A stretch of 64,000 bases of DNA from Eledone cirrhosa (Eukaryota), in NCBI GenBank assembly GCA_964016885.1, contig OZ024746.1, forward strand, positions 41,106,001 through 41,170,000, written 5' to 3'. The notes under the pieces are model-generated. The model ran no database searches, was not told where the DNA came from, and was given only the letters and a program-made list of their open reading frames with translations. How positions within the stretch are numbered: the first letter of the stretch is position 1; the number at the start of each line of letters is the position of its first letter. The translations under genes were made by a program, and so were the position numbers. Of this stretch, positions 5,773 to 60,392 are shown piece by piece.

Positions 5773-5873
5773 CTAGAAAAGAAGAATTAAAGTCACATCA
5801 GAAATTATGATTACGTTGGCATAGACAAATCAATTTAAATTATAAAATTCTTTAATATTCTATCTATATGATT

Positions 5874-10225: not shown

Positions 10226-11740
10226 TGCTTGTTGTATTGTTTGTGCTTTTATTTGGGTTTTCTTTGGGCTTATATTCAAAATTTGGACAAGGTTTTTGAG
10301 GCACTTTTTTCTTTGGCTAGATGCCATTTTTAACATAATCCCATACTTTATTTATAAGAATAGTAAGTATATATAGCAAACTTTCATTGGCCAGCCAAGC
10401 TGCAGGATGTATTGTATATGCAAGACTTATAAATTGCTACTACTTGCTTCAAGTTTTGTCAATATGAAAATATTCATGGTAAATAACTGATACAATCCCC
10501 ATTCTGTCTCAACATCCTCCTCCTCCTCTGAAGAATGACTGATACATATACACACCCATATATGAGATGTTTCTCTACAGTTTCTGCCTAGCAAATTCTA
10601 CTCACAAGACATATTGGTCAACCAAAGGCTATATATAGTCCAAAATACTTGCCTAAGGTTCTATGTAGAGGTGGAGGCCTAAACTATATGGTTGCAAAGC
10701 AAACTTCTTAACCTCACAGCCAGGTTTGTGTAATGTGCATATGTAAATAAAACCACAGAATATTAATTTTGTAGTGTGATGCATTTTTACTACTCAACTT
10801 ACAACTTATTTTTAAAATATGGAACTGTTACATGCCCCCTCCCTCCAAAAAAGAATGGAATATAAATATTGAAAAAAAAAAAGTTTTATTTTTTGGCACA
10901 ATTTGAAATGAAAAAGAAAGTTGATTAAATCTTACCGATACTTATTTTATCAACCCTGTAAGGATGAAAGGCAAAACAAGGCAGCGAGTTAGCAGACATG
11001 GAACAGACTGTCATTGGTTTCAATGATATTCTAGGTGCTTGATCAACAGAACAGTCAGTTTATGAAATTATAGTTCTGAGCATTCCACAAACACGTGCGT
11101 AATTCTCAGGGAGATTCAGCACGATACAGAATGTAACAAGGCTGGCCCTTTGAATTAGAGGTAAAGTCCATCCAACAGGTTTCCAAACAGTTTCTGTCTC
11201 CCCAATTTCACTCAAGGCATGGGTTGACCCAAGGCTAGGGTAAATGACACTTGCCCAAGATGCTACACAGTAGGATCAAACCTGGCTAAATACTTTGTAG
11301 CATTTTGAGTTCAAACACACCAAAATCAACATAATTTTTCATTCCTCTGATGTCATTAAAGAAACTATCAGCAATATACTCAAATTAGTGTTTCTCAGTG
11401 GGATTAAAACTAGTATCATAATGGGAAACATATATACATACAAGAAAGCCCCCTCTCTAGCATTTCACCTCTATCCTTTGTTGATGCACATTATCAATGT
11501 ATAATGTTTTCCTCTTTTCATCATTATCATCACTGTTTAAAGACTATTTTCTATACTTACATCTGTTAGATGAGCAGTCACATATAGAAACTAAACTGGA
11601 CACATCTTGCTTGTGTGCTCTGTTCTTTTGGATTGGTTTCTATGGATGGATGCTCTTCCTAACACCAACCACTTTACAGCAATCTATTGTGACTCTGGCT
11701 CCTTATAGATGAACTTAGTCAAGGGTTGGTTGAAAAGTTC

Positions 11741-12439
11741 ATGGAAAGAAACAATGCAGTTATTAATAAAGAAGTTGAAATTATTGCTTGCAAAATTTCA
11801 CGGCTCTAGCATCACTCCTTTGTATATGTAAGTCATCTTTGTTGAATCTCTTGCTTGACTATAGAATATATTGTTCACACCATCACCATTTTATATCCAT
11901 AACCCTTGCTGGCATGTTTTGTCACATTCTGAGACTAAACTGGTCATATGTTCATCTTGTTCATATGTTCCATATTTGGCATAGTTTTTTTAATGTCTGG
12001 ATGCCTTCTTAACACCAACCAATTTACTGTGTGTAGTGATTATTTTTTAGAGTGGACTGGGTGTTTTATAGTGGTATCAGCATGGGACATAAACAAACAT
12101 TACTAGTCACCTTAAGTTTCGTTGATATGAAGACATACTTATACATATAGCATAATCATCATTTTTATGTATTTTCTCTAGTTTGAGATTAGACAGGTCA
12201 GAGAACCTCATCTTGCTCATGTTTTTGAGCATGTTTTCTATAGGTGGATGACCTTTTAAACACCAACTACTTAACAGATGGGATGGTATGGAGTAATGGA
12301 GGGTGTGAATTGTAGCTACTACATGATTTGTTACTTGTAGGTAGTTGATTAAACACGCACACACACACACACACACACGTATATATATATATACACACAC
12401 ACTTAAATATATGAATGTATGTCTGTATATATGAATGTA

Positions 12440-12475
<36 letters not shown>

Positions 12476-13169
12476 CATACATACAGACATACATTCATAT
12501 ATTTAAGAGTGTGTATATATATATATATATATACACACACACTGTGTGTGTGTGTTTAATCAACTACCTACAAGTAACAAATCATGTAGTAGCTACAATT
12601 CACACCCTCCATTACTCCATACCATCCCATCTGTTAAGTAGTTGGTGTTTAAAAGGTCATCCACCTATAGAAAACATGCTCAAAAACATGAGCAAGATGA
12701 GGTTCTCTGACCTGTCTAATCTCAAACTAGAGAAAATACATAAAAATGATGATTATGCTATATGTATAAGTATGTCTTCATATCAACGAAACTTAAGGTG
12801 ACTAGTAATGTTTGTTTATGTCCCATGCTGGTACCACTATAAAACACCCAGTCCACTCTAAAAAATAATCACTACACACAGTAAATTGGTTGGTGTTAAG
12901 AAGGCATCCAGACATTAAAAAAACTATGCCAAATATGGAACATATGAACAAGATGCAGTGACCTGACCAGTTTAGTCTCAGAATGTGACAAAACATGCCA
13001 GCAAGGGTTATGGATATAAAATAATAATGATGGTGATAATATATTCTATAGTCAAGCAAGAGATTCAACAAAGATGACCTACATATACAAAGGAGTGATG
13101 CTAGAGCCGTGAAATTTTGCAAGCAATAATTTCAACTCTTTACTAATAACTGCATTGTTTCTTTCCATG
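11741..13169. repeat. ~1.4-kb near-perfect palindrome centred on (TA)n
   Basis: Mirror ORFs in the track (12107..12400- vs 12415..12801+; 11788..12012+ vs 12802..13122-); arms checked by eye; centre at about 12446-12470. Confidence 0.95.
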
Positions 13170-13749
13170 GACTATCCTGAAATATTAAACCACATTTGGT
13201 CATTCCACGAGAGTATCTTGGTCAGTCTATGAAGGAGTGATGCTAGAGCTGTGAAATTTTGCATGGATTAATTTCAACTTCTTTATTAATAACTGCATTG
13301 TTTCTTTCCATGAACTATGTTGAAAAATAAACCACATTTGGTCATTCCATGAGAGTATCTTGGACAGCCTATGAACTTTTCAACCAACCCTTGACTATAA
13401 TTATAAATAAAATAAGTGTGGGTTGGTGTAAAAAATGTCTTATTTAACTTATGCCAACATGTGATGATGATGATAGATAAATACTGCAACAAATAGTGTG
13501 TTGCCAACAAATATATCTATATAGGTGAGATAATAAGTACATACATGAGATATCTATGAGTATGCAACAACTTTAGATATGAGAATATTAATACACTAAT
13601 ATCAAATACTGTACAGTAGATGATAAAGTGAAATATTTTATTTTCCTACTAATTTATTAGTGGTTAGTTTAGTACTTCTGGAAGGGTAGGTAGATGGCAA
13701 TCAATCAAGAAACTATATACTGTAGGGTTTATCTGATATGGTGTGTGGG

Positions 13750-16215: not shown

Positions 16216-16593
16216 ATCATCATCATCATTTTACGTCCGCTTTTCCCTACTTGCAAGGGTGGGACGGGAACTGATTCTGGCTTGATTTCTACAGCTGGAT
16301 GCCCTTCCTAACACCAACCTCATTTACAGTGCTTTTTTTTTTTCCGTGGCGCCTATATGTCCACTTTACAGTGTGGGCTGGGTGCTTTTTTGCCGTGGTA
16401 CCTCCACGACCACTTTGCAGTGGAATGATATGGACCCCAGTCCTATCATCTCATTTCTACAGCTGAGTAAACTGGAGCAATGTGAAATAAAGTGTCTTAC
16501 TCCAGGAAACAACACATCACATGGTCTGAGAATTGAACTCACAACCTTTTGATTGCAAGGCCAATGCTCTAACCACTAGGCCATGTGCCTCCA
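16216..16593 (-). mobile_element. CORE-like tRNA SINE, left copy of an inverted pair
   Basis: Same family as 5874-6206. Confidence 0.85.
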
Positions 16594-16631
16594 TTATATA
16601 TCATCATCAATATATATATATATATATTGAT

Positions 16632-16955
16632 GGAGGCACATGGCTTAGTGGTTAGAGCATTGGCCTTGCAATCGAAAGGTTGTGAGTTTAATTCTCAGAC
16701 CAGGTGATGTGTTGTTTCCTTGAGCAAGACACTTTATTTCACATTGCTCCAGTTTACTCAGCTGTAGAAATGAGATGGTAGGGACTGGGGTCCCTATCAG
16801 TCCACTGCAAAGTGGTCGTGGAGGTGCCACGGCAAAAAAGCACCCAGCACTCACTGTAAATGAGGTTGGTGTTAGGAAGGGCATCCAGCTGTAGAAATCA
16901 AGCCAGAATCAGTTCCCGTCCCACCCTTGCAAGCAGGGAAAAGTGGACGTAAAAA
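16632..16955 (+). mobile_element. CORE-like tRNA SINE, right copy of an inverted pair
   Basis: Head ggaggcacatggcttagtggttagagc (box A), box-B-like gtttaattc, RTE-like tail. Confidence 0.85.
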
Positions 16956-17255
16956 AAAAAAAAAAAAAAAAAATTATATATATATATATATATCTATCTA
17001 TATATCTATCTATCTATATATATATAATCTAGCTGTCGTCTGTTCTACAGTGTGGATGTCATTCACTTCGCACAGAAGTTTTGTTCAAATTTATTGAGGA
17101 AATTTTGTGAGTTCAAACTTAATTTTGATACAATTGTGTAGCTTGACCCTCCGTCTGAACTGTCAGGCGGTGGGTCAGCTCATCTTTACCCCTCCTAGAG
17201 GTGAAAAACCTGTTTTAAAAAATTTTGTGTAAAAAATTTCAATCGTCTAACAGAA

Positions 17256-19130
17256 ATGTTAAACGCAGCGAACGAAAATAGTGGTGGGGGGACAGCGGTA
17301 AGAGTTGTAAGCTCGCACGCTTTAGTCCTCCCTTCCTTCCCAACTAACGTCATAGAGAAGGAAGGAAAAATGAAAATAAAAACGGACGAATCTGCGGAGG
17401 AAAAAAAATTAAATGACGAAAACAACGAAAAAAAGAAATTTGAAAAATTGCATGACAATACTAATAACACAAACAAAGACACAACAAACAAAAAAATAAC
17501 AGTTGAAAATAACATAATATCAGAAAACAAAGCAGACGACAAGATTTCTTTTGCACAGAAAACAAAGAAATCTTTGACTTATATAGCGGAAAACATTTCA
17601 GATGTGGTACGAAGGATCACGGACGCAAAACAATACATAAGTGAAGGTGAGAATGGTATTTTATTGGTAAAAATGCCTCAAGAATTCACGAAAGACATTG
17701 AAAGCCGAACGGTCAAGTTTCGGACCATCAACAACAGTACAAAAAAACCTGAACAGCCTTCTCAAGCAGATATCAAAACAGTACTCGCAGAAGTACTGAA
17801 TGAAACAACTTTCATAAGAAAAGACAGACTGTATGGAAGCCTAGCAATTATCATGAAGAACGAATCGGCGGCAAAAAAATGTGCTTTGTCACCGATTCGT
17901 TCGAAAAATTTCACCTTTTATCCATCTTATATGGGGAAAAAAACTCAACGCATATGGCTGGATGCAATGATGCCAGATGTGGACTACTGCTGGCTCATAG
18001 CTGGCTTCATCGATCCAGTGAATGACAACGTGATTTCCATTGGGAAAACCACAGGCAATGCGTTCAGTGGAACAGGTATAGAGCTGGTAGTACAAATGAA
18101 GCCTGAACGCATCGCCCAAATACCCGACAGAATCCTATTAGAGGACCACGGGTATATAAACATTAGCGTGGAGGGGAGAAGGCCGTCCTGCCATATCTGT
18201 GCAGGCAGAGGGCACCTGAAGGCCGCTTGTCCCCAACTCAACAAAAAGAAAACCCTGCTACCAACACCAGCTCCACCACCACCACCACAACAGATAAACA
18301 AACAACAAAACTCAGTCCCACCCAACCCGTCCCTCAGTAACACCACAACACCACCACAACACAAACAGTCACAACACATTACCCCAAAACAAAATACAGG
18401 CCCACCCAACCTCTCACTCAATAAAACAACACAACCACCGCAGACACAACACACAACACAGTCTAACATAGTGACATCCATCTCCCCCACAAAGAAAACC
18501 AACACGGAAACATTACCAGCAAACATACCTCTTCCCTCCAACACTGAAGATAACCCAACGAATTCGGAGGAAGAAACGGAGTCCTTCAGACAGATTAAAA
18601 GGAAAAAAAGAAAACATGTGCAAAACACACAAGGACAAACAACCCCCACCCAAATCGCAACACAATCTAACAAAACAGAAAACACCCCTCCAGCAACAAA
18701 CAAAACCAAACCTGCCCCTCCCCTCTTCGAAACACTCACACCATCCGAAAAAAAGACATTACACTATACTTACATCAACAGAAACAATAATAAATTAAAT
18801 GAACTCATATACAATAATCCTTCGGTACAAACCGAAGGTGTAAACTTTGTTTCATCAGAAAACCACCCACATTTAAAACTAATAAAAATCCCAATGAACC
18901 TCTACCAAAAACTAAAAAAGGATTTTAAGGAGGACGTAGGACCACCCTCTGTCAAACCCATAAACCGCGTCCTACTAAAAAGCTTTCCCCCTCCCCTTCC
19001 CAACACAACTCCAAACACCCCAACCCCACCACACACCGACGACCCCACACCACCACAAGACACCCCTTCACCCAACACCCCCGACCCCATGGAAGTCGTG
19101 CAACCCGAACCCCGGGAAGCGGAAAGGTAG
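17256..19130 (+). CDS. LINE ORF1, gag-like protein with CCHC knuckle
   Basis: 624 aa; CHICAGRGHLKAAC (CX2CX4HX4C) followed by a Pro/Thr/Gln-rich tail. Confidence 0.9.
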   Translation: MLNAANENSGGGTAVRVVSSHALVLPSFPTNVIEKEGKMKIKTDESAEEKKLNDENNEKKKFEKLHDNTNNTNKDTTNKKITVENNIISENKADDKISFAQKTKKSLTYIAENISDVVRRITDAKQYISEGENGILLVKMPQEFTKDIESRTVKFRTINNSTKKPEQPSQADIKTVLAEVLNETTFIRKDRLYGSLAIIMKNESAAKKCALSPIRSKNFTFYPSYMGKKTQRIWLDAMMPDVDYCWLIAGFIDPVNDNVISIGKTTGNAFSGTGIELVVQMKPERIAQIPDRILLEDHGYINISVEGRRPSCHICAGRGHLKAACPQLNKKKTLLPTPAPPPPPQQINKQQNSVPPNPSLSNTTTPPQHKQSQHITPKQNTGPPNLSLNKTTQPPQTQHTTQSNIVTSISPTKKTNTETLPANIPLPSNTEDNPTNSEEETESFRQIKRKKRKHVQNTQGQTTPTQIATQSNKTENTPPATNKTKPAPPLFETLTPSEKKTLHYTYINRNNNKLNELIYNNPSVQTEGVNFVSSENHPHLKLIKIPMNLYQKLKKDFKEDVGPPSVKPINRVLLKSFPPPLPNTTPNTPTPPHTDDPTPPQDTPSPNTPDPMEVVQPEPREAER

Positions 19131-19163
19131 GTCTCTACACTCTCCTTTGGCTCTGCCGCCCAC

Positions 19164-22100
19164 ATGGATGTGTTAAGAGTAGGATGTTTGAATGCACGTG
19201 GCCTGGGCTCAACTTGGAAGCAAGCAAAGCTTCTAAATGACCTCAGGTCATGTAGTATAAATGTAATGGTTATCTGTGAGACTCGAATCAGCGTCATGCG
19301 GCAGCTGGCCCCCACCTTCGATGACTTTGAGGTGCATGCATCTCTCTGTCAACCTGGAGGTGGGGGTGGGGTTGTCGTGCTGCTGCAAAAACACCTGGGT
19401 CTTGCCGTACAGGTTGTGCACTCGGACCCGGAGGGTCGTTTGTTGGTGCTAGACGTTGGCAGTAGTGAAAGTGCGGCCTTGAGACTGGTCGCCGTCTACT
19501 CCCCTTTCGGAGCTGAACGGCCCGACTTCTTCCAGCGTTTGGAGACTTTTCTGGGAACGTCGCGTTCCCTGCTTCTAGCGGGGGATTGGAATGACATCCT
19601 AGATGCACGTTGGGACTATGCAGGAGCATGTCCTAATAGAGGGGGGTGTAACAGCCTCAAGGGGTTACTCGACCGTTTTAACTTGGTCGATAGATATCGA
19701 CTAGATTTTCCAACTGTGCCTACCTGGACTTGGAGAAACCACAGTGGTCAATCTAGATCGTACTTAGATAGATTCTTAGTTAGAAGTAAGGATAGGGACA
19801 TATTAAGCTGTCCAGAAATGCGCACGGTTGGCTACACGGATCACAAATTAGTGACCTGCGTGGTCAATCTCGAGAAAACACATAGACAGGGTCCCGGTTA
19901 CTGGAAACTTAATTTGTCTTTACCGGCAAAAGAGACTTACAGAAACCGGATTAGCAGATTAGTTAAGGAGAGGTTGACGGGTGCAATCGTCAACAACCGA
20001 TGGTGGGCATCTCTCAAAAGAGAGATTAGAACAGAATCAATAAGCTATAGCAAGATGTTAGCTGCCAATAGGAATAGAAACGAGAAAGAATTAACAGGTA
20101 AATTAGAAGAGGCAATCAAGAGCGAAGATGTGGCCAGAGTGCTGGCATCGAGGACGGCCTTGAACCAGTTTTTCGATGCAAAGCATGAAGGCTGCGTCAT
20201 TCGAAGTAAAATACGTGCTCTAGGTAATGAGGGGGCCAAAGCCGTTGGATGGGCCCGCGTGACAGAAGCTAAAAGTGGAAATCGATCCACCATCCGGTCG
20301 TTGCAAGACGAAGATGGACGAGTGATCCGGGAGCCTAAGCAGATGTGCGAGGCCTTTCAAAAGCACTTTGCCCAATTGTTCGGGGGAGGCGAGGGTCCGG
20401 GCCGGGGCGTGAATTTCGGTCCATACCTCGACGGCCTGCCGCGTCTCTCGAACAAAGAGGCGGAGTCCTGCGAGGGACCAATCTCGGCTGATGAGATCGG
20501 AGATGCGCTGAGCCAATGCAGCAGACGCAAATCTCCAGGTCTCGATGGTATACCTTACGAACTTTATTTAGCAATGCCGGTCTTCTTCTCCGAACTCCTC
20601 GAAGCGGTCTACTGCAATTGGCAGCAGAACGGGAGAATTCCTTGTTCTGTAGCCAAGGGCGTAGTCACGCTGGTGAGGAAGGACGAGAACAAGGGGGATA
20701 GTATAAATAATTTTCGGCCCATAACCCTGCTAAACACAGAGTTAAAGATTTTGGCCAAGGTGTTAGCAAAGAGGTTGGCGCTTGTCGTGGGTGGCCTGGT
20801 GGGAGATGCGCAGACATGTGCTATCCCATCCAGGTCCATTCACGATAACCTCCACCTCATGCGATACATCATAGAGAGGGTTGGCAACAAACCCGGCTTC
20901 GGTGGGGCCCTGATCAACTTGGATCAGTCTAAGGCCTTCGATAGGGTCGACCATGGTTACCTGGATGCGGTGCTAGCGGCGGCTGGGTTCGGTCCTGTTT
21001 TCAGAGGCTGGATCACTGCCCTACATAGCAACCACATCTGTTCTAGGATCAAGGTGAACGGCTACCTTTCGAAGCCGTTCGAAATCACACGATCCATTCG
21101 ACAGGGGTGCCCTCTCTCCTCCCTTCTGTACGTATTGACTCTCGAGCCTTTACTGAGGAAGTTGGAGTTGTTGCAGGGTATCCCCCTGGAACCAGGATTG
21201 AGCAAAGCGGTGTCGGCCTACGCCGATGACGTAACAGTAATGGTATCAACCGACTCGGAGATCGAGGCGATCGGTACCTTACTGGAGGAGTACGAAAGGT
21301 TGTCAGGAGCGAAACTGAACCGGGAAAAATCCATCGGGCTGCAACTCGGAACGTGGAGAGGCAGACCGATGCCTCCCGATGGTGTCGTCGGACACTGGAC
21401 GGAGGGCCCGGTAAAGTTGCTTGGGGTCTGGTTTGGACCGGACCTCCAGGTGGAAAAGAACTGGAACGAGGTTACGAACAAGGTGTTTGCACTAACCCAG
21501 AAATGGGCCAAGTGTAAGCTGTCCCTAAAAGGCCGGGCGGAGGTGGCGAACATTTACATAGCGTCCGTCACTTACTACCGCCTGACTGTCGTGCCTTGCC
21601 CTAAGGAAACACTCACCACCATGGAACGCATGCTCTTCCAATTTCTTTGGAAGAAGCGTCCTCCTATGGTGAGAAGATCCATCTGCTGCCAACAACCTTC
21701 GAAAGGAGGGCTGGGGATGCCGTGGTTGATGATGCGTAGGCACGCATTAAGGCTACGGCACCTACAGGTATTCCTCACTGGTCAACCGGTGTGGGCTCCG
21801 TTCGTGAAACGAGCCTTTCCGAGACTCGTCTCACTCACCGAGCTACAGTCCTGGGTCAAGCAAAGATCCGGAAAACTGGGAGACTGGCACACTGAGTGTG
21901 CTCAGGCGCTCAGGGCTCTCTGGCAAGCGGGCCGGGCCATCGGTGGAGAATCCACCTCATCATTCTATAGAGGGCTGGTGGCTAGCAGGGGCGATGACAC
22001 CCTTGGAGAGTCGCTGGACATGGAAGAAGACGAACTGGCCAGCCTGTTCGGTAGGACTTTCGGCCCAGGACCAATGGACAACTTCCAGAAGTCACTGGCC

Positions 22101-22601
22101 TGGCAGTGCTACCGAGGGGCTCTACCCGTTCGAGAGAGGCTCTACAGACACGGGCGCCCGGGCAGGGATCCCTCAAAAAAGATTTGCCCTAGATGCGTGC
22201 GTCACGAAGAAACCGTGGCGCACGCATTGGTGCAATGTCCGGGCGTGGCTGATCTGTGGGGCTACGCCGAACAACTGCTGTCGCGGGTGGCGCCGATTAA
22301 ATTGACAGCCGAGTCCGTGATGACAATCAAACCGCCTCCCCTCTTCACAAAGGAAGCAAAGGCGGTTTTTCTGTGCGTAATAGCCATGTTGAAAGAGGTT
22401 GTTTGGTGGACACGATTGAAAGGTCTGAGGTCAGGCAACTTCCTCTCTGGCCATAGTCTGGTCTACTTCTTCCGATATCACTTCGGAAGAAGGATAAGAA
22501 TGGAGAGAGAGGTGCTTGGCCACAGGCAGTTTTATGAAAGGTGGGTGATAGTGGCGAGAATGGCTCGTGTAAATGGGCCTTCTCTGTATACCATCCTGTA
22601 G
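19164..22601 (+). CDS. LINE ORF2: APE endonuclease, reverse transcriptase, C-terminal zinc finger
   Basis: 1145 aa; LNARG, GDWN, LDRF, TDH (APE); KSPGLDG, FRPITLLN, KAFDRV, RQGCPLS, YADD (RT); KGGLG; CPRC...HALVQC. Confidence 0.97.
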   Translation: MDVLRVGCLNARGLGSTWKQAKLLNDLRSCSINVMVICETRISVMRQLAPTFDDFEVHASLCQPGGGGGVVVLLQKHLGLAVQVVHSDPEGRLLVLDVGSSESAALRLVAVYSPFGAERPDFFQRLETFLGTSRSLLLAGDWNDILDARWDYAGACPNRGGCNSLKGLLDRFNLVDRYRLDFPTVPTWTWRNHSGQSRSYLDRFLVRSKDRDILSCPEMRTVGYTDHKLVTCVVNLEKTHRQGPGYWKLNLSLPAKETYRNRISRLVKERLTGAIVNNRWWASLKREIRTESISYSKMLAANRNRNEKELTGKLEEAIKSEDVARVLASRTALNQFFDAKHEGCVIRSKIRALGNEGAKAVGWARVTEAKSGNRSTIRSLQDEDGRVIREPKQMCEAFQKHFAQLFGGGEGPGRGVNFGPYLDGLPRLSNKEAESCEGPISADEIGDALSQCSRRKSPGLDGIPYELYLAMPVFFSELLEAVYCNWQQNGRIPCSVAKGVVTLVRKDENKGDSINNFRPITLLNTELKILAKVLAKRLALVVGGLVGDAQTCAIPSRSIHDNLHLMRYIIERVGNKPGFGGALINLDQSKAFDRVDHGYLDAVLAAAGFGPVFRGWITALHSNHICSRIKVNGYLSKPFEITRSIRQGCPLSSLLYVLTLEPLLRKLELLQGIPLEPGLSKAVSAYADDVTVMVSTDSEIEAIGTLLEEYERLSGAKLNREKSIGLQLGTWRGRPMPPDGVVGHWTEGPVKLLGVWFGPDLQVEKNWNEVTNKVFALTQKWAKCKLSLKGRAEVANIYIASVTYYRLTVVPCPKETLTTMERMLFQFLWKKRPPMVRRSICCQQPSKGGLGMPWLMMRRHALRLRHLQVFLTGQPVWAPFVKRAFPRLVSLTELQSWVKQRSGKLGDWHTECAQALRALWQAGRAIGGESTSSFYRGLVASRGDDTLGESLDMEEDELASLFGRTFGPGPMDNFQKSLAWQCYRGALPVRERLYRHGRPGRDPSKKICPRCVRHEETVAHALVQCPGVADLWGYAEQLLSRVAPIKLTAESVMTIKPPPLFTKEAKAVFLCVIAMLKEVVWWTRLKGLRSGNFLSGHSLVYFFRYHFGRRIRMEREVLGHRQFYERWVIVARMARVNGPSLYTIL

Positions 22602-28077: not shown

Positions 28078-28379
28078 TCGTCTTGGTAACGGTACTCATA
28101 AGCAAACAATAAGACAATTGCTAGAATAAATAGGATGATAAAACTTGTCCAATGTAAAACTGATTTCACATATCTAAGGTTGAAGCAGTGAAGTTGTTCA
28201 GTAATTTTCCTTGATCGAAGAGAATTTTCAGCAAATTGTACTTCAGTTAGCAGTTCTTCATAGAATGTTAATAGAGCATGTTTTGTGGTGAACCCAACTT
28301 GTTCCTCTTGAGGCTTTTCACCACATGTAGAATGGTTGGAGCCCTCCTCTTTTGGAGAAACAGGGTCATGGCTTGGCAT
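28078..28379 (-). CDS. TMEM94: TMEM94-like membrane protein, first coding exon (MPSHDP...YRYQD)
   Basis: Acceptor tttAG before 28386, ATG at 28379, donor GA|gtaagt at 28077 (phase 2). Contains GFTTKHALLTF and the hydrophobic SVLHWTSFIILFILAIVLLFAY. Phase matches the next exon. Confidence 0.8.
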
Positions 28380-29415
28380 GGCACATCTAAAAATATAACA
28401 AAATATATAAAAAATGAATAAAAATAAAAATAATTTAATTTCAATGTTATCAAAATATAAAAAAGAAATACTAAAACAAATCTTATGCATTTTAACTCTC
28501 AAAACAGATTTTCATAAAATTAAGATCTCTTTGAAATCTCAAACAAAATTTGACTTCTGAAAAACTGAATGTAAACCAACTATTTAAAAAGGATGAAAGA
28601 ATGGAAAAAGGTATGTGTGTGCAAATGTATATTTGAACAAAATGTAGCATTTAAAAATAACAGCCATATTTTAAAAAAATGGGGCAATAGAAGAACAAGT
28701 GAAGTAACATAGGTTGAGTGTTTACCAAGAGGTAGCACTGTTTAGGGAAAAATAAAATGAAATGAAAGCAGTCTGTAGAAAAGGTGCATGGAGGTTAACT
28801 TAGAGAGACCAAAATGTAGAGGTGAGCAAGGTTGGAGACAGGGAAATATAATACACATGAACAAGTTACTCTCAATCGATTGAAATATAAATGTACTAAT
28901 ACAAGATGGCTAGTTATAGAAGACAGAGTAGGGGAAATAGGTAGGAAAGATATGTGTAAGGTATGTTAAATATCCTTCAGGCAATAAGCCAATTCAACCA
29001 AACATGCCAAAAAATAAATATATATAAAATAGTACTTATATCACATTGGTTTGATTTACATGAATAAAGTAGTGAAATAATCCAATGTCCATTTATAACA
29101 TATACACACACATATACATATATACACACATATAGATACATATACACACACACACATATATATAGCCAGTTAATCTTGTACGGTAGTTAAGTTGATGACA
29201 ACAAAAAGCATCCAGCCCACCCTGTAAAGTGATCATGTTGACAAAAAACACCTGGTCACCCTTGTAATGAAGCAAATGCGGTTGGTGTTAAGATGAGCAT
29301 CCGGCTACAGAAACACTTCTGTATGAACAAGACATGGTCACCTGATCTGACTTGTCTCACAACAGGAGAACTCCTCTACCCATGTTAGCATTGAAAATGG
29401 ATGTTAAACAGTGAT

Positions 29416-34841: not shown

Positions 34842-34940
34842 ATATATAACGGAGGAAATGTGGTAAGGAGCCAGGTGGACCATAACGCACCAAAGTACTC
34901 AATACTTAGGGTAGTAGAGTGGGTAATAGGAACGAGTAGG

Positions 34941-35036
34941 ACCCCGACGGCTGAGCTCAAGCTGTTTCAACGGCTAATTCTGGACTAAATGAAAATTTTT
35001 ATCCTGGTATTTGAATAGCCGAGCTTCTCAAGGAGT
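34941..35036 (-). ncRNA. Second, slightly mutated copy of the U3-A8 hammerhead
   Basis: Reverse complement of 35624-35719 with three substitutions in stems; core TTGAGAA / GAAA / GTC retained. Confidence 0.6.
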
Positions 35037-35623
35037 AATTCCATATATGGTAAAAGTGATTGTCACAAGGATTGGTCAAAAGTTTGTTGTTGAGACATAA
35101 TTCTATCATGGTAATTTGTGGAGGGAAGGGGTAGCTGAACCTGCCAGTAGGTTGACCCGTCACCATAAGATATACTCGGTTTATTACTTATACCTCTTAA
35201 AAGGGTCTCACTATATAATTCCGTCCCACCTAGTAAACCTTTCTTTAGCAGTACCAGTGAGAGACTTGATAGCTGTCCTTAGGTCGTAGTAACCAGAAAT
35301 TGTTTATTTATTTATTTTTTTTATTTTTTTATTACATTTAATTGCTTTTTAACACACTCAGTATTTTTTTTATATATTTACCCCATACTATTTTACTTAT
35401 TGTTTCGACTTCCTCCCCCTCCCTAGTATCTTCTTTGACCTCATGCCCAGCTGTAGTCGGCACTATCAACGCATGACTGGGTCTGCTCCACCCCTCTCCC
35501 TTTCTCCTACTGGCAGGTTCAGCTACTCCTCCCCTCCACAAATTGCCATGATAGAATTATTATGTCTCAACAACAAACTTTTGACCAATCCTTGTGACAA
35601 TCACTTTTACCATATATGGAATT

Positions 35624-35719
35624 ACCCCTTGAGAAGCTCGGCTATTCAAATACCAGGATAAAAATTTTCATTTAGTCCAGAATTAGCCGTCGAAACGGCT
35701 TGAGCTCAGCCGTCGGGGT
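35624..35719 (+). ncRNA. Type I hammerhead ribozyme, U3-A8 core variant, long stem II
   Basis: acccc TTGAGAA g..cggcta-[long loop]-tagccg.c GAAA cggct-tgagctc-agccg TC ggggt; GUC site at 35712-35714. Confidence 0.72.
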
Positions 35720-35729
35720 CCTACTCGTT

Positions 35730-35771
<42 letters not shown>

Positions 35772-35945
35772 AATTAGGTATGTAACTACAGTTATAGGCG
35801 ACATGCCGTTCAAAGCACTCAATGCTGTTATGTTGGGGTGTATCCCAGAGTTAAGGTGGCTGTACTGTGCAGAGTGTAAATACGGTAAGTAGAGTCAAAA
35901 ACAGTGTTGCAGCATATGCACAATCTTTATTGGCATATTACAATG

Positions 35946-36106
35946 GTTTCAATATCGATCAGCTCAGGGTACAATCATAATGATGGGGCCCAACTCTTCT
36001 ACATCTCCTCAGATATGCCTTTGCATACATGCATATCTGAGGAAATCTAGAAGAAGAGTGAGGCCCCGTCATTATGATTGTTCCCCGAGTTGATCGATAT
36101 TGAAAC
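35946..36106. repeat. Fold-back hairpin with ~70-bp arms, probably a palindromic MITE
   Basis: gtttcaatatcgatcagctc...tcctcagatatgc pairs with gcatatctgagga...gagttgatcgatattgaaac around a 12-nt loop. Confidence 0.85.
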
Positions 36107-39100
36107 AATGCCAATGTCTGCCAAAAAAAAGTTTTTTGGGGGATAACAATCACATTAACTGAGGAATAGGTGATAAAATGGAGGAGGAGGGAGGACAGTT
36201 TATATATGCCATCTAAATGGCTTATAGATGGGAGTTGGATTTTTACCCATTTCTCAGACATAAAACAGTGGGTAGTCTGCTTATATTTGAGTATAATAAG
36301 TAGTACTACTAGGGTCATTAATTCCTTTTTCTCACTGATTCTCTCCTTCTTTGGAATAAATTCATGAGTGTGTCAGGTCTAGTTTGAACACAAACTTTCT
36401 TCCACCAGTCGTTGAGTCTTTGAAAAAGAGCATGATACTGCTTTTTCTTTCTGTGACCATACACAATACTTAGACTGGTTGATCCTAACTATTATCATGT
36501 GTCTTATTCTTGGATGTGACCAGAGTCTCAAACTGGCCTTTGAACTATCAACCTTTTTTATTTCTATATTAATTCTACATTGCCAATGTATTTCAATTAA
36601 TTTTGAAAATATATATATATATTTGGAGGAAGTTAAAATAACTAATTGTTTCATTAGTAAGCTCAATTTTAGAACATTACTTAATAAAAATTTCTTTAAA
36701 TTATTCTGGAAGGATTTAATATAAAGATGAACATATTAAAATGAGCAATTTTATATCATAAATACATGACAATTTCAGTTGGTTTGGTATCAGAAACATT
36801 AAAGCAATATTTTTATTCAATGAATAAAAATAATGTTAAGAGACTAAAATCTTGTATTCATAGGATAAAATTTTGATTTTAGTTAACTTTTTATTGAAAT
36901 TGTATTTTATACATGTCAATATAATGAAAGAAAACTAATGAAGTAAAACATTCAGTTCAACCCACATCTCGCATACAAATCTTTCTTGTTAACAGAGAAA
37001 CAGCTGATGCCACCTCTCCCTCCCATCACCACCTCTTGCCTGCAAGTAAAATTTCATTCAAATTTGAAACATACTATAAACTTTTGAATTATCAAACCCA
37101 TATTTAGATATTTTCTACTAAATAATTACTGGATCTTAAGAGTTAAGTGATTCTTTAACCTAATATTCACAGCTGGTAGGCTTTTGACCAAAGGTTTGCC
37201 CCAATGAGATCTCATCCTACATTTACTTCAAGACAATATGTATCTTTAACCCTTTAGCATTTAAACCGGCCAGAATTCTCTCACTTTTTTCTGTTCAAAC
37301 CAGTCATAATCAGCTGCTCATACCGATGTTAAGGTATTGTTCTCAAAATAAATAATATCAAAACCTCAGATTCATTATATGAGATATGTGAGAAAGCCTT
37401 TACTGTGAAAATACAATAGTAAATATAGAGTAATGTGAATGCTAAAAGGTTAATGTTTTGTAATATTTTGAAATACTGGAATGGACCTCTGCCAGTTTCC
37501 ATAATGAGTGTTCCACCTGTCTGATCAATGGAACTTCCTGCTCATGAAATTAATGTGTATGGGGTTGAGTGTTCCACAGACGTATGTACCCATTACATAA
37601 TTCTCAGGGAAATTCAGCATGACAAGAGTGCAACAAGGCTGGCCCTTTGAATTACAAGTACAGTTCATCTGATGGACTTTCAAACAGTTTCTATTCAATT
37701 TCAATCACAAGACGTAGGTTGACATGAGGCTATGGTAAATAGTACTTGTCCAAGATGCCAAGCAGAGGGATCGAACCCAGGACCTAATGAATGCAAAGTG
37801 AACCTCTTAACCATTCAGGCACGCTGCATCCAATTTAAAATACTATAAGTTAGTACTTTCTGCTAATTATTTATTCATCATGTAACAACACAAAAACAAA
37901 ATTGTGTTGATGGACTATTTCCAGACACCCAGGGTCTCAAAGTTGCTTTCTTCTTTATCTTATTTGTCCTGCTGTATTTTCTATTGTCTGTCTTTCCTGT
38001 ATTTTACAGATGACTACCTTATTTTTACAGTGACTGGTAACAGGAATGTCAATCTGTTCAGCTATTTAGTTTATTGATTGGCAACATTTTGGTGTGTGGT
38101 CAGTTTGTTGTTTTTATTCAAAACGCAATCCCAAAGAAACGAGGGGGGTGGTTTCATGAAAATGAATATAAAAGAATCAGATACAGCAGGGTTTACACAG
38201 TAGACTAGGTTAGTGCGGTACCTGTAGTATAAACGAGGGTTGGCTGAAAGGTTCATAGGTTGACCAAGATACTCTCATGGAATGACCACATGAGGTTTAT
38301 TTTTCAACAGTCCCTGGAAAAAAACAATTCAGTTAATAATAAGAGTTGAAATTAATGCAAGCAAGACTTCACAGCTCTAGTATCACTCCATAGTCAGCCT
38401 ATGAACTTTGCAACTAACTTTGTACAATAAAGGGGCTCAATTAAAAATAAGTATGGGTTGGCGTTAAGAAGGGCATCTTGTAGTATACTGCTTCAAAAAC
38501 AGCCTAGTCTAGCTCATGCAAAAAGTGGATGTAAAAATTATGCTGATGATGAATGTATGAAATGAATTGTGTATGAGTGACTTGAGAAAACAAGAAACAT
38601 CAGTATAATATATATTATGCACACTAAAATGGGTGCATTGGTGCCATGATAAAATGGTCTCAATTCATTCTGTAAAGTGGTAGAGCTGGTGCCACAATAA
38701 AAACGATCCACTCAGCCCTGTAGAGTTGTAGTGGTGGTGCCACAATAAAATGCACCCAGTAAACACTGAAGTGGTTAGCATTATAGGATAGATGGGCATC
38801 TAGCCATAGAAACCATGCCAAAATTGGAAGTAGGAACTAGATGTGATCACCCGACCACCAGATGATTTATATATCATGATCATTTTATGTTGATTTTTCT
38901 GCGTTGGAATGAGTTAGACGACTTGTTCTGTTGTGGACAATGTTAGGTCAGGTGATCATGTCTTGCTCATACTGAACTAATTTTGGCTTGGTTTCTACAG
39001 CTGGATGCCCTTCCTAACACCAACCTCATTTACAGTGAGAACTGGGTGCTTTTCATCGTGATACCTCCACAATCACTTTACAGTGTGGGCTGGGTACCTT

Positions 39101-54520: not shown

Positions 54521-54545
54521 ATAAGTAAGGCAATCAAATAAGTAT

Positions 54546-56696
54546 AATAAGTAAGGCAATCAAAGATATGAAGACGGGTAAGGCGGCTGGGCCTTCGGAA
54601 ATAGTTGCTGAGATGCTGAAGGCATCTGGTTCGGTGGGACACACCATGGTCACCCGGATAGTTAACCAAGTCGTACAGAATGGGGTTGTTCCGAAGGAAT
54701 GGCGTAGCAGCATCATCGTTAACTGCTATAAGGGAAAAGGAGATGCCCTAGATAGGAGTAACTATAGAGGCATTAAATTAATCGACCAGGTCATGAAGGT
54801 CACGGAAAAAGTAATAGCGCAACTAATCAGAGAGAGAATTGATCTAGATGAAATGCAGTTCGGGTTTGTGTCAGGCAAAAGTACCACAGACGCTCTTTTC
54901 ATTGTACGACAACTACAGGAGAAGTACCTAGCTAAAAGTAAACCCCTATACTTAGCTTTTGTCGACTTGGAGAAAGCCTTCGACAGAGTCCCCCGTTCCA
55001 TTATCTGGTGGTCTCTTAGAAAACTAGGTGTTGACGAATGGCTTGTGAGAGCTATACAAGCCATGTATAAAGAAACAGTCAGTAAGGTTAGAATTAACAA
55101 CGAATATAGTGAAGAGTTTAGCGTAAAAGTTGGTGTCCATCAGGGCTCTGTACTTAGCCCCCTACTATTTATTATTGCCCTTCAGGCTATAACAGAGGAG
55201 TTCAAGACCGGCTGCCCATGGGAACTCCTATACGCAGATGATCTAACGCTCATAGCTGAATCAATGACCGAACTAGAGAAGAAATTCCAAACGTGGAAGC
55301 ACGGCCTAGAATCAAAAGGCCTTAAAATTAACCTGGCTAAGACTAAAGTTCTAGTTTGTAGGAAAGAAAATAAGGCGGCGGTCCCATCGGGGAAATGGCC
55401 ATGCTCAGTGTGTAGGAAAGGCGTAGGTAGAAACTCCATTTTATGTCCCAAATGCAAAGTATGGGTGCATAAAAGATGTAGTGGGATCACAGGTAAGCTA
55501 ACTAAGAACATAGATTTTACATGTGGCCGGTGCTCTGGTGCAATAAGTAGCAGCAAGTGCCCACAAAATACTAGCTCCTTCAACTGCGCAGAGGGTTCTA
55601 TAGAAATAGTGGACAGCTTCCGTTATCTGGGTGACAAAATCAGCAGTGGGGGAGGGTGCTCTGAAAGTACAGTAGCTAGAGTCAGAACTGGATGGAAAAA
55701 GTTCAGAGAGCTTATACCACTATTAGCCGCTAGAGGGTTCTCCCTAAAAATGAAAGGCAGGTTATACGATGCCTGCATACGAACAGCAATGCTGCATGGC
55801 AGTGAGACCTGGGCATTGTGTGCAGAGGATATACGCAGACTAGAGAGGAACGAAGCTTGCATGCTCCGCTGGATGTGCAATAGTAATATACGTCAACGGC
55901 AAAGCATAAACGAACTAAGGAAAAAATTAGAAATAAGAGGGATCAGATGTTGTTTACTCGAGAGAAGGCTACGTTGGTACGGTCACGTGATGCGCATGAA
56001 AGACGACAGCTGTATAACAAAGTGCAGGGCAATAAAGATAGACGGTAGCCACGGAGTAGGCAGACCCAGAAAAACATGGGACGAGCTGATAAATTCCGAC
56101 CTCACACGCTTACACCTCTCCAAGACAATGTCACTGGACCGAGACCTTTGGCGGTACTCAGTAATAGAGAAGACCCGCCTTACCTAAATACAAAGTAAAA
56201 ACCTACTACAGTCAGTAGGCACCTCTATCAAAACACACCCCCGTCCCACCACCTCCACCCCACCCACACCGCCCCTTTCAATGTAAAGTTATGTTGGTCC
56301 CACAACATCCAGGCCGAAACAAATGAGATCGTGTAGGTGTCACGACAAAAAACACACAGTCCACGCTGTAAATGTGGCCGTGTAGGCAACACGGTAAAAA
56401 CCTCCCAGCCCCACACTGTAAATGTGGTTGGTGTTAGGAAGGGCATCCAGCTGTAGAAAACCCGCCAGACAGTCCACGCTGTAATGTGGCCGTGTAGGCA
56501 ACACGGTAAAAACCTCCCAGCCCCACACTGTAAATGTGGTTGGTGTTAGGAAGGGCATCCAACTGTAGAAAACCCGCCAGACAGTCCTATGCGAGCAAGA
56601 CAACCACTCTTGCCTCAAGTGGGAAAACCCCCGTCCAAACCCATGCAAGCGTGGAACACGGACGCTAAACCTGATGATGATGATGATGATGATGAT
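54546..56696 (+). mobile_element. 5'-truncated RTE-clade LINE inserted in (TA)n
   Basis: RT ORF, 3' UTR with a ~112-bp internal duplication (56357-56586) and (gat)n tail; TA runs on both sides. Confidence 0.92.
54568..56187 (+). CDS. RTE reverse transcriptase (no endonuclease part) with PHD-like insertion
   Basis: GKAAGP, NYRGIKL, FVDLEKAFDRV, GVHQGSVLSP, YADD, FRYLG, RLRWYGHV, GRPRKTW; uninterrupted for 539 aa. Confidence 0.95.
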   Translation: MKTGKAAGPSEIVAEMLKASGSVGHTMVTRIVNQVVQNGVVPKEWRSSIIVNCYKGKGDALDRSNYRGIKLIDQVMKVTEKVIAQLIRERIDLDEMQFGFVSGKSTTDALFIVRQLQEKYLAKSKPLYLAFVDLEKAFDRVPRSIIWWSLRKLGVDEWLVRAIQAMYKETVSKVRINNEYSEEFSVKVGVHQGSVLSPLLFIIALQAITEEFKTGCPWELLYADDLTLIAESMTELEKKFQTWKHGLESKGLKINLAKTKVLVCRKENKAAVPSGKWPCSVCRKGVGRNSILCPKCKVWVHKRCSGITGKLTKNIDFTCGRCSGAISSSKCPQNTSSFNCAEGSIEIVDSFRYLGDKISSGGGCSESTVARVRTGWKKFRELIPLLAARGFSLKMKGRLYDACIRTAMLHGSETWALCAEDIRRLERNEACMLRWMCNSNIRQRQSINELRKKLEIRGIRCCLLERRLRWYGHVMRMKDDSCITKCRAIKIDGSHGVGRPRKTWDELINSDLTRLHLSKTMSLDRDLWRYSVIEKTRLT

Positions 56697-56706
56697 ATAT
56701 ATATAT

Positions 56707-57536
56707 GAAAAAGTAAGTCCTTCATCAGTGACCCTCCAACCGTCCCAGGCATTTCATCGCTTTAAGGGCCATATACCTCAGGTTGGTGCGAACAACGGCT
56801 AAAAAAAGTCGTTGGGACACGTAAAAAAAGGGGACGTTAGGTTGGAGGGTCACTGATGAAGGACTTACTTTTTCATATGTTCCCATTTGCAACGCGCAGC
56901 TCCATTATTATCATATTTACACATATTTTTTCTTCTGCTGCCACCCGTCTGTTTCGTTCTTTGTATCTTTACCCTTTCTAGCAGTCTCTCTCTCTGTTAG
57001 CCTCCTCCTCAACTTTCACTCACTCATTCTCTGTCACTACCTCTCCTCCTCCTCCTCTTTCCTCCTCTTTCTTCCCGCTTGACCTTTCCGATTTCTTTTC
57101 TCGCGCGTTCTTGGCCAAGCCGGTATGAAATTTTTTTTCTCTCTCTCTCTCTCGTCTGCGACTTCACAGAACTTATGTTTACCGAATTCGTAGACCAGAC
57201 CCCTTCTTCTTCCCCCCGTTAGACCTGTGCGAAATTCCTTCCTTGCTCACATTTCAACCAGGTTTGATGGTCTTTTGTCTCTTGTTCACGATTTCACCGA
57301 GTTTATATTCATAGAAATCTGGGACTTGTCTCTTTCTTCTCACTTTCCGTTGCTTAAACCATTTTGTTTGTTCACCCTAACGTCCCCTTTTTTTACGTGT
57401 CCCAACGACTTTTTTTAGCCGTTGTTCGCACCAACCTGAGGTATATGGCCCTTAAAGCGATGAAATGCCTGGGACGGTTGGAGGGTCACTGATGAAGGAC
57501 TTACTTTTTCTTTCATATGTTCCCATTTGCAACGCG
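56707..57536 (+). mobile_element. Penelope-like non-coding element (inverted plus direct terminal repeats)
   Basis: 56707-56841 is inverted relative to 57376-57509; 56840-56896 is a direct repeat of 57476-57536; CT-rich body; repeats contain ctgatgaaggact. Confidence 0.7.
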
Positions 57537-57546
57537 TATATATGTG

Positions 57547-57670
57547 AAGGTGCATGGCTGAGTGGTTAAAGAATTGGATTCACAATCTCGAGGCTGTAAG
57601 TTCGATTCCTGGACCGGGCGATGCGTTATGTCCTTGAGCAAGACACTTTATTTCACGTTGCTCCTTCTAC
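57547..57670 (+). mobile_element. tRNA-derived SINE head plus CORE-like block
   Basis: tggctgagtgg (box A), gttcgattcc (box B), tccttgagcaagacacttt. Confidence 0.75.
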
Positions 57671-57764
57671 CTGGAGTTGCGACCAATAGATAGTACTAGC
57701 AACTGGAAAGACCGACGAAAACATTGTTTCCTCGGTCCAATTTGACGAAAGTCGGTCGATCCTT

Positions 57765-58338
57765 ATATATATATATAAATGTATATATAGTGTATTTTGT
57801 AATACACTGTATGCTTAATTAAAAGCATTTCAAAGACCTTATGCTATTGTTTTAGAGTAGTGACAGTCTCACTTACTTTAAGTTTTCAGCTGTCACTACT
57901 CTAAAACAATAGCATAAGGTCTTCGAAATGCTTTTAATTAAGTATACAGTGTATTGCAAAATACACTATATATACATTCATATATATATCGGTATTTCAG
58001 AGCGCCAATTCTAATTTTCAATTTCTGCTTGACCGGCAACCACTCTGTATAATCAGTTCCTGATTATTACTAGAAATTCTATAAGAATCAAACATTCATG
58101 ATTTTCAGCAAACAGGTGGAGTACATGGCTCTGATAAGTACCAATCAGTACGAAACATAGCTCTGTCAGCTTTATTTCCCCTGTTTGCTGAAAATTTAAA
58201 GTAAGTGAGACTGTCACTACTCTAAAACAATAGCATAAGGTCTTTGAAATACTTTTAATTAAGCATACAGTGTATTGCAAAATACACTATATATACATTC
58301 ATATATATATCGCTATTTCAGAGCGCCAATTCTAATTT
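57765..58338 (+). mobile_element. Penelope/retrozyme-like non-coding element, ~321-bp unit with inverted 5' copy
   Basis: 57770-57890 is inverted relative to 58187-58310; direct repeats at 57890-58017 and 58211-58338; (TA)n flanks. Confidence 0.78.
58101..58195 (+). ncRNA. Type I hammerhead fold with CUGAUAA core
   Basis: ggct CTGATAA gtac-caatca-gtac GAAA ca-tagctc-tg TC agct, closed by the long helix ttttcagcaaacagg / cctgtttgctgaaaa. Confidence 0.75.
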
Positions 58339-58357
58339 ATATATATATATATGTATA

Positions 58358-58456
<99 letters not shown>

Positions 58457-58772
58457 TTATTAAAATAACAGATTAAAGTTTAAGCAAAGAATCGCTGCTT
58501 TCACCCTTAACAGGATCTTCTGAAACTAACAAAGTCAATCTGTAAACGCAGAAGTGGATATTTCAAAAAACGTTGCAACCGGAGGAAGACAGGAAGACGA
58601 TACTTTGGTTCGTGGAAACGTATAGGTTGCCAGTTTTGTCAGAATGGACGTGCACGGCATTAGAATCCTTAATAGAATGAATTCTATTCTTCATACGTTT
58701 CCACGAACCAAAGTATCGTCTTCCTGTTTTCCTCCCGTTGCAACGTTTTTTGAAATATCCACTTCTGCGTTT

Positions 58773-58848
58773 ACAGATTGACTTTGTTAGTTTCAGAAGA
58801 TTCCGTTAAGGGTGAAAGCAGCGATTCATTGCTTAAACTTTAATCTGT
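58773..58848 (+). ncRNA. Type I hammerhead fold with CAGAAGA core (5' pLTR)
   Basis: Same fold 660 nt upstream; stem II variant tcc/ggg still pairs. A third copy lies on the minus strand at 58468-58543. Confidence 0.65.
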
Positions 58849-58993
58849 TATTTTAATAAATATTTGCTCTACGGTTCTTATATATTTGATATATATTTAT
58901 CCTTATCGAGCCCTCTTTGGATTTTAGTCTTCAAATTTATTATTGTTACTATTTGGCTCCCTCGGTTGAGCACTCTACTGACTTATATTCATC

Positions 58994-59413
58994 ATGCAGA
59001 ATCAACATCTGAATATTTCTACAAATAACATATCCGTACCAAGCATGAAAACATATCTAAAACTCCTGATACAGAAAACAGACGCGTTCATTAAAAGGCT
59101 GCGTTGGCGTGCCTTTTATTTCGATAATCCGCGAAAAGCAGACAACAAACAGGATAAATTTGGATTTAAAACCTATAATAACCCCCCGTGTAACCCAGCA
59201 TTGCTACCCTTCGAAAATGATGTCTTGGAACTCATTCGGAGTATCAAATTTCGGATTAGGAGCAATTCCTTCCAGCAAGACCTGAAGAATAGAATTCGTT
59301 CTATTAAGGATTCTAATGCCGTGCACGTCCATTCCGACAGAACTGGCAACCTATACGTTTCCACGAACCAAAGTATCGTCTTCCTGTCTTCCTCCGGTTG
59401 CAACGTTTTTTGA
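58994..59413 (+). CDS. N-terminal fragment of a Penelope-like element protein
   Basis: LIQKTDAFIKRLRWRAFYF, KFGFKT..PP, FENDVLELIRSIKFR and SDRTGNLY (DKG/DKT-type motif) resemble the PLE pre-RT region. Homology ends at about 59353, where the repeat begins. Confidence 0.75.
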   Translation: MQNQHLNISTNNISVPSMKTYLKLLIQKTDAFIKRLRWRAFYFDNPRKADNKQDKFGFKTYNNPPCNPALLPFENDVLELIRSIKFRIRSNSFQQDLKNRIRSIKDSNAVHVHSDRTGNLYVSTNQSIVFLSSSGCNVF

Positions 59414-59432
59414 AATATCCACTTCTGCGTTT

Positions 59433-59508
59433 ACAGATTGACTTTGTTAGTTTCAGAAGATCCTGTTAAGGGTGAAAGCAGTGATTCTTTGCTTAAACTT
59501 TAATCTGT
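59433..59508 (+). ncRNA. Type I hammerhead fold with CAGAAGA core (3' pLTR)
   Basis: agttt CAGAAGA t-cct-gttaa-ggg-t GAAA gca-gtgattctt-tgc TT aaact; distal stem I acagattga / ttaatctgt. Confidence 0.68.
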
Positions 59509-60392
59509 TATTTTAATAAATATTTGCTCTACGGTTCTTATATATTTGATATATATTTATCCTTATCGAGCCCTCTTTGGATTTTAGTCTTCAAATTTAT
59601 TATTATTACTATATATATATATATATATATATATATTCATTTGTTAAGCAAAACAAAACCACAAATTTCACAAGGAAGACATTATTAAAAGATTGTCAAC
59701 ATAGTTTTAGTTTAATGTATGGAATGTAAATAATAATACTAATAATTGTTTCTACTTTTGGCACAAAGCCAGCAATTACCCAGTGTATTACTGGTACTTT
59801 ATTTTGTCGACCCCGTAAGGATGAAAGGCAAAGTTAACCTTGGCGGGATTTGAACTCAGAATGGCAAGGGCCGTAACTCTATGCATCAAAGCATGGCATC
59901 CGACCTTCTACTGATACTGCCAATCCCCTAATGTCTGTTTACAATTGTTTCGCTACTCCATATAATGTTTCTGGATCAAATGATTATAGATCATTATTGA
60001 TCTGGATTGGCAGAATTGGTGGAGGGTTGGACATGCTTTCCAGCATAGTTACGTCCCTTTACGATCTGAGTTCAAATCCCGCCAAGGTTAACTTTGCCTT
60101 TCATCCTTACGAGGTCGATAAAATAAAGTACCAGTAATGTACTGGGTAATTGCTGGCCTTGTGCCAAAAGTAGAAACAATTATTGATCTGGTTCAGTTGA
60201 AGATAATTAACTTAGGTAAAATTGGAGCAGTTCGTCGGAACTTCAAAAGGAATATAAATTAAGGTAAAAAAGATGGTTACATGAATGTAATGTTCCATAT
60301 ATTGGTATTTCATTATTGTCTGCCATTGTACATTGAGCACATGCCTTTACGCTTTGGCTTCTAACTAATTCACCAATCTCTCTTCTCCTCTC

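Follow-up and report, generated by a model that had tools for sequence, protein, structure and literature searches.

The DNA analysed here (the window) is a stretch of 64,000 nucleotides from the octopod Eledone cirrhosa (GCA_964016885.1, contig OZ024746.1, positions 41,106,001 to 41,170,000). It holds at 57767-58338 an insertion that lies between TA repeats and is built on a unit of 321 nt with a GC content of 33% (Table 1). The direct repeats of the insertion are 128 nt long with a period of 321 (57890-58017 versus 58211-58338), the whole locus amounts to about 1.4 units with a single hammerhead, and a palindrome of 223 nt at 57767-57989 has arms of 100 nt (96%) around a 23-nt spacer. The repeats of 128 bp, the unit of about 321 bp and the palindrome of about 220 bp claimed in the preliminary description are thus real. 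Its "inverted 5' copy" does sit at the 5' side, but the sequence that is copied is the 3' part of the unit; this copy begins within the unit, at a (TA)n stretch, ends inside the distal helix of the hammerhead, and has no tail. Compared with the window, the unit gave only its three internal copies among the matches listed, the rest being TA repeats. Active relatives, as expected in the preliminary description, may plausibly exist elsewhere. The longest open frame over the core, of 77 codons on the minus strand, has no homologue in the protein set, which bears out the earlier view that there is no credible ORF. Neither an RT and GIY-YIG ORF nor a remnant of one was found in the 321-nt unit, and an autonomous Penelope-like element (PLE) was rejected on that ground. 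The tRNA gene search found none; the sigma-70 promoter scan stayed at chance level, for a type of signal irrelevant to an animal; and the phage records returned one match of 35 nt (E 0.03), regarded as chance. As a circle of 321 nt, the self-paired RNA form in which animal retrozymes are expressed, the unit is predicted to be 59% paired (z -4.9), mostly in the ribozyme hairpin; the remainder of the unit has a z of -2.0.

Table 1. Features of the insertion, its hammerhead fold and the two adjacent elements (positions in the window).
Feature	Position	Strand	Basis or detail
Element A, non-coding, CT-rich interior, PLE layout	56699-57536		146-nt inverted arm, ~57-nt repeats, 18-nt tail
Short TA run, left flank	57763-57766		sequence
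Copy of the element's 3' region (58187-58310), inverted and truncated at its 5' end	57767-57890	-	4 mismatches in 124
Upstream direct repeat, pseudo-LTR-like 5'-truncated tandem copy with tail	57890-58017	+	4 mismatches in 128 versus 58211-58338
Non-coding spacer ahead of the ribozyme hairpin, unique part of the 321-nt unit	58018-58099	+	no PLE protein similarity
Type I hammerhead fold, extended (core with helices I, II and III, internal loop 1 and distal helix)	58100-58196	+	descriptor, folding, Rfam alignment
Distal helix of the hammerhead	58102-58116/58180-58194	+	15 Watson-Crick pairs and 2 more
Core positions 3-9: C3 (58131), U4, G5, A6, U7, A8 (58136), A9	58131-58137	+	sequence, strict descriptor
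Stem II	58138-58141/58148-58151	+	4 Watson-Crick pairs, G10.1-C11.1, 6-nt loop
3' core: G12 (58152), A13, A14, A15.1 (58155)	58152-58155	+	
Helix III region	58155-58166	+	3-bp stem, 6-nt loop, near-palindromic
GUC triplet; cleavage predicted after 58167	58165-58167	+	strict descriptor
Downstream direct repeat, the element's 3' end	58211-58338	+	
28-nt tail, in both direct repeats, missing from the inverted copy	58311-58338	+	repeat comparison
(TA)n target tract, right flank	58339-58452	.	sequence
Element B, internally deleted Hydra-clade PLE, PLE layout	58453-59612		660-nt unit, 260-nt repeats, inverted copy, 89-nt tail

The hammerhead has the topology of type I, with three helices around the core and helix I open. 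In helix I, a U.U mismatch separates 4 bp from a single further pair; towards the distal helix there follow a 4 x 3 nt internal loop, three base pairs and a bulged U. Ten of the 11 invariant core bases as well as C17 are present; the exception is A8, which faces C3, and the Watson-Crick pairing of positions 3 and 8 accordingly fails. In the strict descriptor these two positions were free to be any base: it matched once in the 64-kb window, at this site, and never in 150 block-wise dinucleotide shuffles. This confirms the hammerhead as first described, with its C3/A8 core, stem II, GAAA, short stem III and GUC; the distal helix of about 15 bp is equally confirmed by its Watson-Crick pairs. A relaxed descriptor, by which the distal helix and the loops were not considered, gave 7 matches in the window versus 0.085 per window in 200 shuffled windows, and 0.025 per shuffled window at a score at least that of this hammerhead. 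The folding z of the hairpin is -5.88, none of 200 shuffles being equally stable. The idea that the match arose by chance within an AT-rich hairpin can point to Rfam, where the model Hammerhead_HH9 scores 21.0 bits (E 0.0046 in a search of 211 nt) and does not reach its gathering score of 52, and where the search over the whole 64-kb window yielded 65 matches with no ribozyme among them. It can also point to the folding of the monomer, in which the hammerhead conformation is predicted at 6.6 kcal/mol above the minimum with a stem III probability of about 0. A weak, palindromic helix III and cleavage as a dimer are however usual for animal type I hammerheads (PMC4209133), and we rejected a chance fold on the shuffle counts of both descriptors; we give it hardly any credence. 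In a dimer, 10 of the 12 positions of the helix III region pair, at -7.3 kcal/mol. As this helix is weak and palindromic, a working member of the family would probably cleave as a dimer.

Other hammerhead-like motifs occur in the window. At 35943-36109, two inverted motifs form a palindrome; their cores are intact, their stem II is long, and they are similar to the motif given for Hydra-1_oBim in PMC8557442 (File S2). Minimal PLE-type hammerheads at 30037 and 53815 (both on the minus strand) have intact cores, a bulged base before stem II, and a palindromic helix III of 4 nt.

The hammerhead uses the 2'-OH of G8 as its general acid (PMC11300833; PMC6155905). When this part of the core was mutated in all pairwise combinations, every single mutant was of low activity and the C3G/G8C swap alone brought a rescue (PMC9901934), while G8C and C3G have been taken as inactive hammerhead mutants (PMC11167929). 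Judged from this published mutagenesis, A8 breaks the pairing of C3 with G8, by which the general acid is positioned, and the ribozyme of this copy is therefore probably inactive. A8 is also seen in PLE-associated hammerheads: in those of the Cercyon PLEs of Schistosoma it is compensated by U3 (about 1,300 matches, PMC4209133). The unit retains C3, so that the pair is broken, and a compensated U3-A8 variant was rejected. For a wider comparison, hammerheads were scanned in GTDB with C3 fixed, with one stem II sequence, and in prokaryotes only. Among the 129 matches listed, 126 have G8 and 3 have A8; when stem I and stem III must each have 3 bp or more (9 dropped), the listed matches divide into 118 with G8 and 2 with A8, a share of 1.7% (2/120; CI 0.2-5.9%). 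Together with the core mutants of PMC9901934, this scarcity supports the earlier proposal in so far as a change of G8 to A is probably inactivating. The matches listed (L001-L080) lie mostly in Patescibacteria/Saccharibacteria genomes. The two loci with three helices and C3/A8 (L025 and L057) may be dead copies, consensus errors, or a tolerated variant. Their existence among the 120 listed matches implies that A8 is not strictly barred in nature; our literature search found no report of a tolerated C3.A8 core, and among the papers listed none with G8A or C3U.

It is very unlikely, in our estimation, that A8 is functional or conditional, either because the extended fold tolerates C3.A8 or because A-to-I editing yields an inosine that pairs with C3. 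Loops 1 and 2 do still fit the HH9 consensus, and the same two bacterial loci can be cited in its favour; set against this is the low activity of single core mutants in PMC9901934. As for editing, inosine at position 8 of the hammerhead may support cleavage. Coleoids are known for widespread editing of repeats, the data being mainly from squid (PMC9068888), and if the whole insertion is transcribed, the ribozyme would stand at the end of a predicted duplex of about 124 bp. This duplex is however confined to the present insertion and absent from the RNA of the unit; A8 is predicted to be unpaired (P paired 0.05), which is not the usual context for ADARs; and editing would strike A6, A9, A13 and A14 too. 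That A8 is a conserved switch, at which the highly active ADARs of cephalopods restore C3-I8 so that cleavage and circle formation of a PLE-mobilised retrozyme depend on editing, is therefore a far-fetched proposition. If true, this would represent a new mode of controlling a ribozyme; none of the papers listed in our search describes a natural editing-gated ribozyme in its title or the start of its abstract.

PLE insertions are recognised by a partial tandem arrangement that forms a pseudo-LTR, an adjacent inverted 5'-truncated copy, and a tail of 30-40 bp at one end; (TA)n targets are known for the Hydra and Naiad clades, and microsatellite targets have also been tied to Naiad and Neptune elements (Craig et al. 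2021, PMC8557442). Four such features are found at 57767-58338: the pseudo-LTR tandem, the inverted copy, the one-sided tail (at 28 nt slightly below the PLE range), and the (TA)n target. The same layout recurs in the neighbouring elements A and B, and in all three elements the inverted copy starts at an internal stretch of the ATAT type. None of six sequence comparisons of the unit with A and B, including their 3' parts, surpassed shuffles. The term "unrelated" in the preliminary description thus holds for the sequence, in which no relation to A or B appears, and not for the mechanism of insertion, since the layout is common to all three.

Element B provides the PLE context. Its ORF (58994-59356) represents the first 121 codons, or N-terminus, of a PLE protein, and the homology stops at 59356, almost exactly at the start of the repeat (59353). 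HMMER with this ORF found 1061 matches at E<=0.001 (best 1.2e-22), a word-indexed protein search 61 candidates with none at E<=0.001, and Pfam no family. Among eight long homologues Pfam gave only RVT_1 (P0052, E 8.5e-4) and GIY-YIG (P0120, E 0.012), both below the curated cut-off. In the five long homologues examined the CxCX5C linker is present in four, DKT in four and RW[K/R] in all; these are marks of the Hydra clade (PMC8557442). B also contains a hammerhead-like motif, seen by the relaxed descriptor at 58522 (-), 58794 (+) and 59454 (+), in which Rfam found no ribozyme at E<=10. Its U.U-based stem II resembles many of the Hydra rows in PMC8557442. All three copies have A at position 4, which indicates that the change was already in B's template. 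Near 57490, element A holds a perfect first half of a hammerhead core, followed by neither stem II nor GAAA. Between A and the insertion, in the same TA tract as the 321-nt unit, lies a tRNA-derived SINE-like element (57544-57762; Rfam tRNA, 20.3 bits), at whose 3' end a 7-bp inverted repeat encloses GAAA and a TGACGA word occurs, loosely like a degenerate type II hammerhead that lacks stem I. Further upstream, at 34850-35734, an element between (TA)n tracts has inverted arms of 229 nt and a one-sided extension of about 76 nt; it is probably a PLE insertion on the minus strand.

From this layout and context we are rather confident that 57767-58338 is a single insertion of a non-autonomous, non-coding retrozyme-type unit, which a PLE, most probably one from the Hydra clade, moved in trans into a (TA)n stretch of octopod DNA. 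The search with 16 long Hydra-type proteins (tblastn) gave no match in the 321-nt unit, and none of three short words taken from it is present in the supplement of PMC8557442. As these comparisons link the unit to no PLE by sequence, the partner is assigned from context, and the Hydra clade is a guess; Hydra-1_Obim of Octopus bimaculoides does prefer (TA)n (PMC8557442, File S1). That no such link was found would also suit a retrozyme monomer that was placed by a LINE or by duplication at the DNA level, with a palindrome that arose later by fold-back rearrangement or is an artefact of assembly, in a tract that is rich in microsatellites and palindromes. We regard this as improbable: the three repeat copies carry private differences, which make a simple assembly duplication less likely; a one-sided tail and a TA start are found in all three adjacent elements, one of them a PLE remnant; and neither a poly(A) tail nor a target-site duplication is visible at 57767-58338, where both flanks are TA repeats. 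Elsewhere the window has long LINE ORFs, at 17205-22601 with an ORF of 641 codons followed by an endonuclease-RT ORF of 1156 codons, and at 54529-56187 with an RT ORF of 552 codons and a PHD-like finger. It also holds two microsatellite-centred palindromes made of repeat-family copies (11736-13399, 1442 nt; 16218-16954, 772 nt). Its host sequences include a TMEM94 exon at 28095-28382 (-), 87% identical to that of Octopus sinensis, as befits an octopod host, and, by its appearance, a candidate further exon of this gene at 5483-5797 (-).

Mobilisation by a PLE would proceed in three steps. The PLE protein would bind tandem or circular RNA of the unit; its GIY-YIG endonuclease, to go by PMC11167929 and by the flanks, would cut AT-rich DNA; and reverse transcription would begin at two sites 28 nt apart, namely the 3' end (58338) and the internal TA stretch (58310). 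The products of this last step are those seen at the locus: the longer one, of 1.4 units, would leave the direct repeats, while the shorter one, of 124 nt, would be fixed in inverted orientation. Two nearby starts of reverse transcription have been offered as the explanation of the PLE tail in PMC11167929. There, the start site is not homologous to the cut DNA, whereas here TA microhomology occurs in three of three elements. The hammerhead of a working family member would cleave multimeric transcripts into single units, and would probably do so as a dimer.

The repeat copies also give a measure for the date of the G8A change. The three copies differ at 5 of 300 site-copies, and G>A or C>T changes affect 4 of 78 G/C site-copies. 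The chance of such a change at position 8 after insertion is hence 5% (CI 1.4-12.6%), and for at least one of the four G/C core sites it is 19%, or 10% with B pooled. This rate makes a post-insertion origin plausible, and we give it an even chance. It is about equally likely that A8 was present in the template from the start, since hammerhead mutants insert in vitro and since B has A at position 4 in all its copies; we put this a little under even. A base-call error seems very improbable. If the template had A8, it might be a state of the family, that is, of a subfamily with a dead hammerhead that is still being copied, and to this too we assign somewhat less than an even chance. Such a subfamily could keep spreading because PLE insertion needs no cleavage and uncut RNA is the better template: insertion of PAc in vitro is undiminished by hammerhead mutants, its main substrate being uncut RNA (PMC11167929). 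B offers a template-borne parallel, but its motif is seen by the relaxed descriptor only, and the post-insertion rate of G>A and C>T suffices to account for A8. The short copies of the unit terminate 3' of the cleavage site, at distances of 19 and 43 nt, as fits an RNA with a cut upstream and an uncut middle ribozyme; they might as well just stall at the distal helix, and either would give these ends.

Our best reading of the locus is therefore a non-autonomous PLE insertion of the retrozyme type whose hammerhead is mutated, and not a working ribozyme. As it stands, it is one more hammerhead-bearing repeat, probably dead, and of modest weight. It is at the same time a clear case of a retrozyme-type unit that is entirely non-coding and bears the full insertion signature of a PLE (inverted copy, tail, TA target). 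Mobilisation of animal non-LTR retrozymes by PLEs was proposed by Cervera and de la Pena (2020, PMC7229834), and in a bioRxiv preprint Li, Clavereau and Pollet (2026, 10.64898/2026.07.22.740005) argue from pLTR homology and co-occurrence that retrozymes are non-autonomous PLE sequences; to this idea the locus adds structural support. It also extends animal retrozymes to octopods: among the papers listed in our literature search we found no octopod retrozyme or hammerhead beyond those of PMC8557442, while the supplements of PMC7229834, PMC4209133 and the preprint may list cephalopod motifs. Whether PLE spread needs cleavage is a question raised in PMC8557442 and PMC11167929, and if A8 proves common to a subfamily, it would be proof in vivo that this spread can dispense with it.

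The closest Rfam family, Hammerhead_HH9 (RF02275, clan CL00010), aligns with its full model to 58114-58189 and has in common with the unit the 6-nt loop 2 and the 4-nt 5' side of loop 1; the unit departs from it by G8A and by mismatches in helix I and the closing helix. With the animal non-LTR retrozymes described in PMC7229834 and Li et al. 2026 it shares its non-coding nature, a canonical type I hammerhead, its size (321 nt within 150-450), a GC content below 50%, a helix II of 4 bp, a helix I of 6 positions, an internal loop, and a weak, palindromic helix III. A retrozyme-type unit, as first suggested, is thus supported by a hammerhead fold within a short, low-GC, non-coding sequence of retrozyme size. 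Retrozymes as described in these sources differ from it in the A8 core, the inverted copy and the tail. When such retrozymes have a target-site duplication, it exceeds 4 bp; here one would fall within the TA repeats of the flanks. By Li et al. 2026, an active retrozyme has at least two tandem units with a complete hammerhead in each; having a single hammerhead in about 1.4 units, the locus is a "monomer" in their terms, and a tandem retrozyme array at this locus was rejected. Compared to Hydra-clade PLEs, the unit has no ORF and no detectable sequence similarity, its helix I continues as a long distal helix, and its A8 stands against G8 in all 26 Hydra cores listed in PMC8557442, these rows having been found with a canonical descriptor. 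Its helix III approaches the ACAG/CTGT form of 4 of the 26 Hydra rows (File S2), and its hammerhead lies 207 nt from the 3' end versus about 100-200 nt in the Hydra-clade entries compared (PMC8557442). Common to both are the pseudo-LTR, the inverted copy, the one-sided tail, the (TA)n target, and the 3'-proximal hammerhead.
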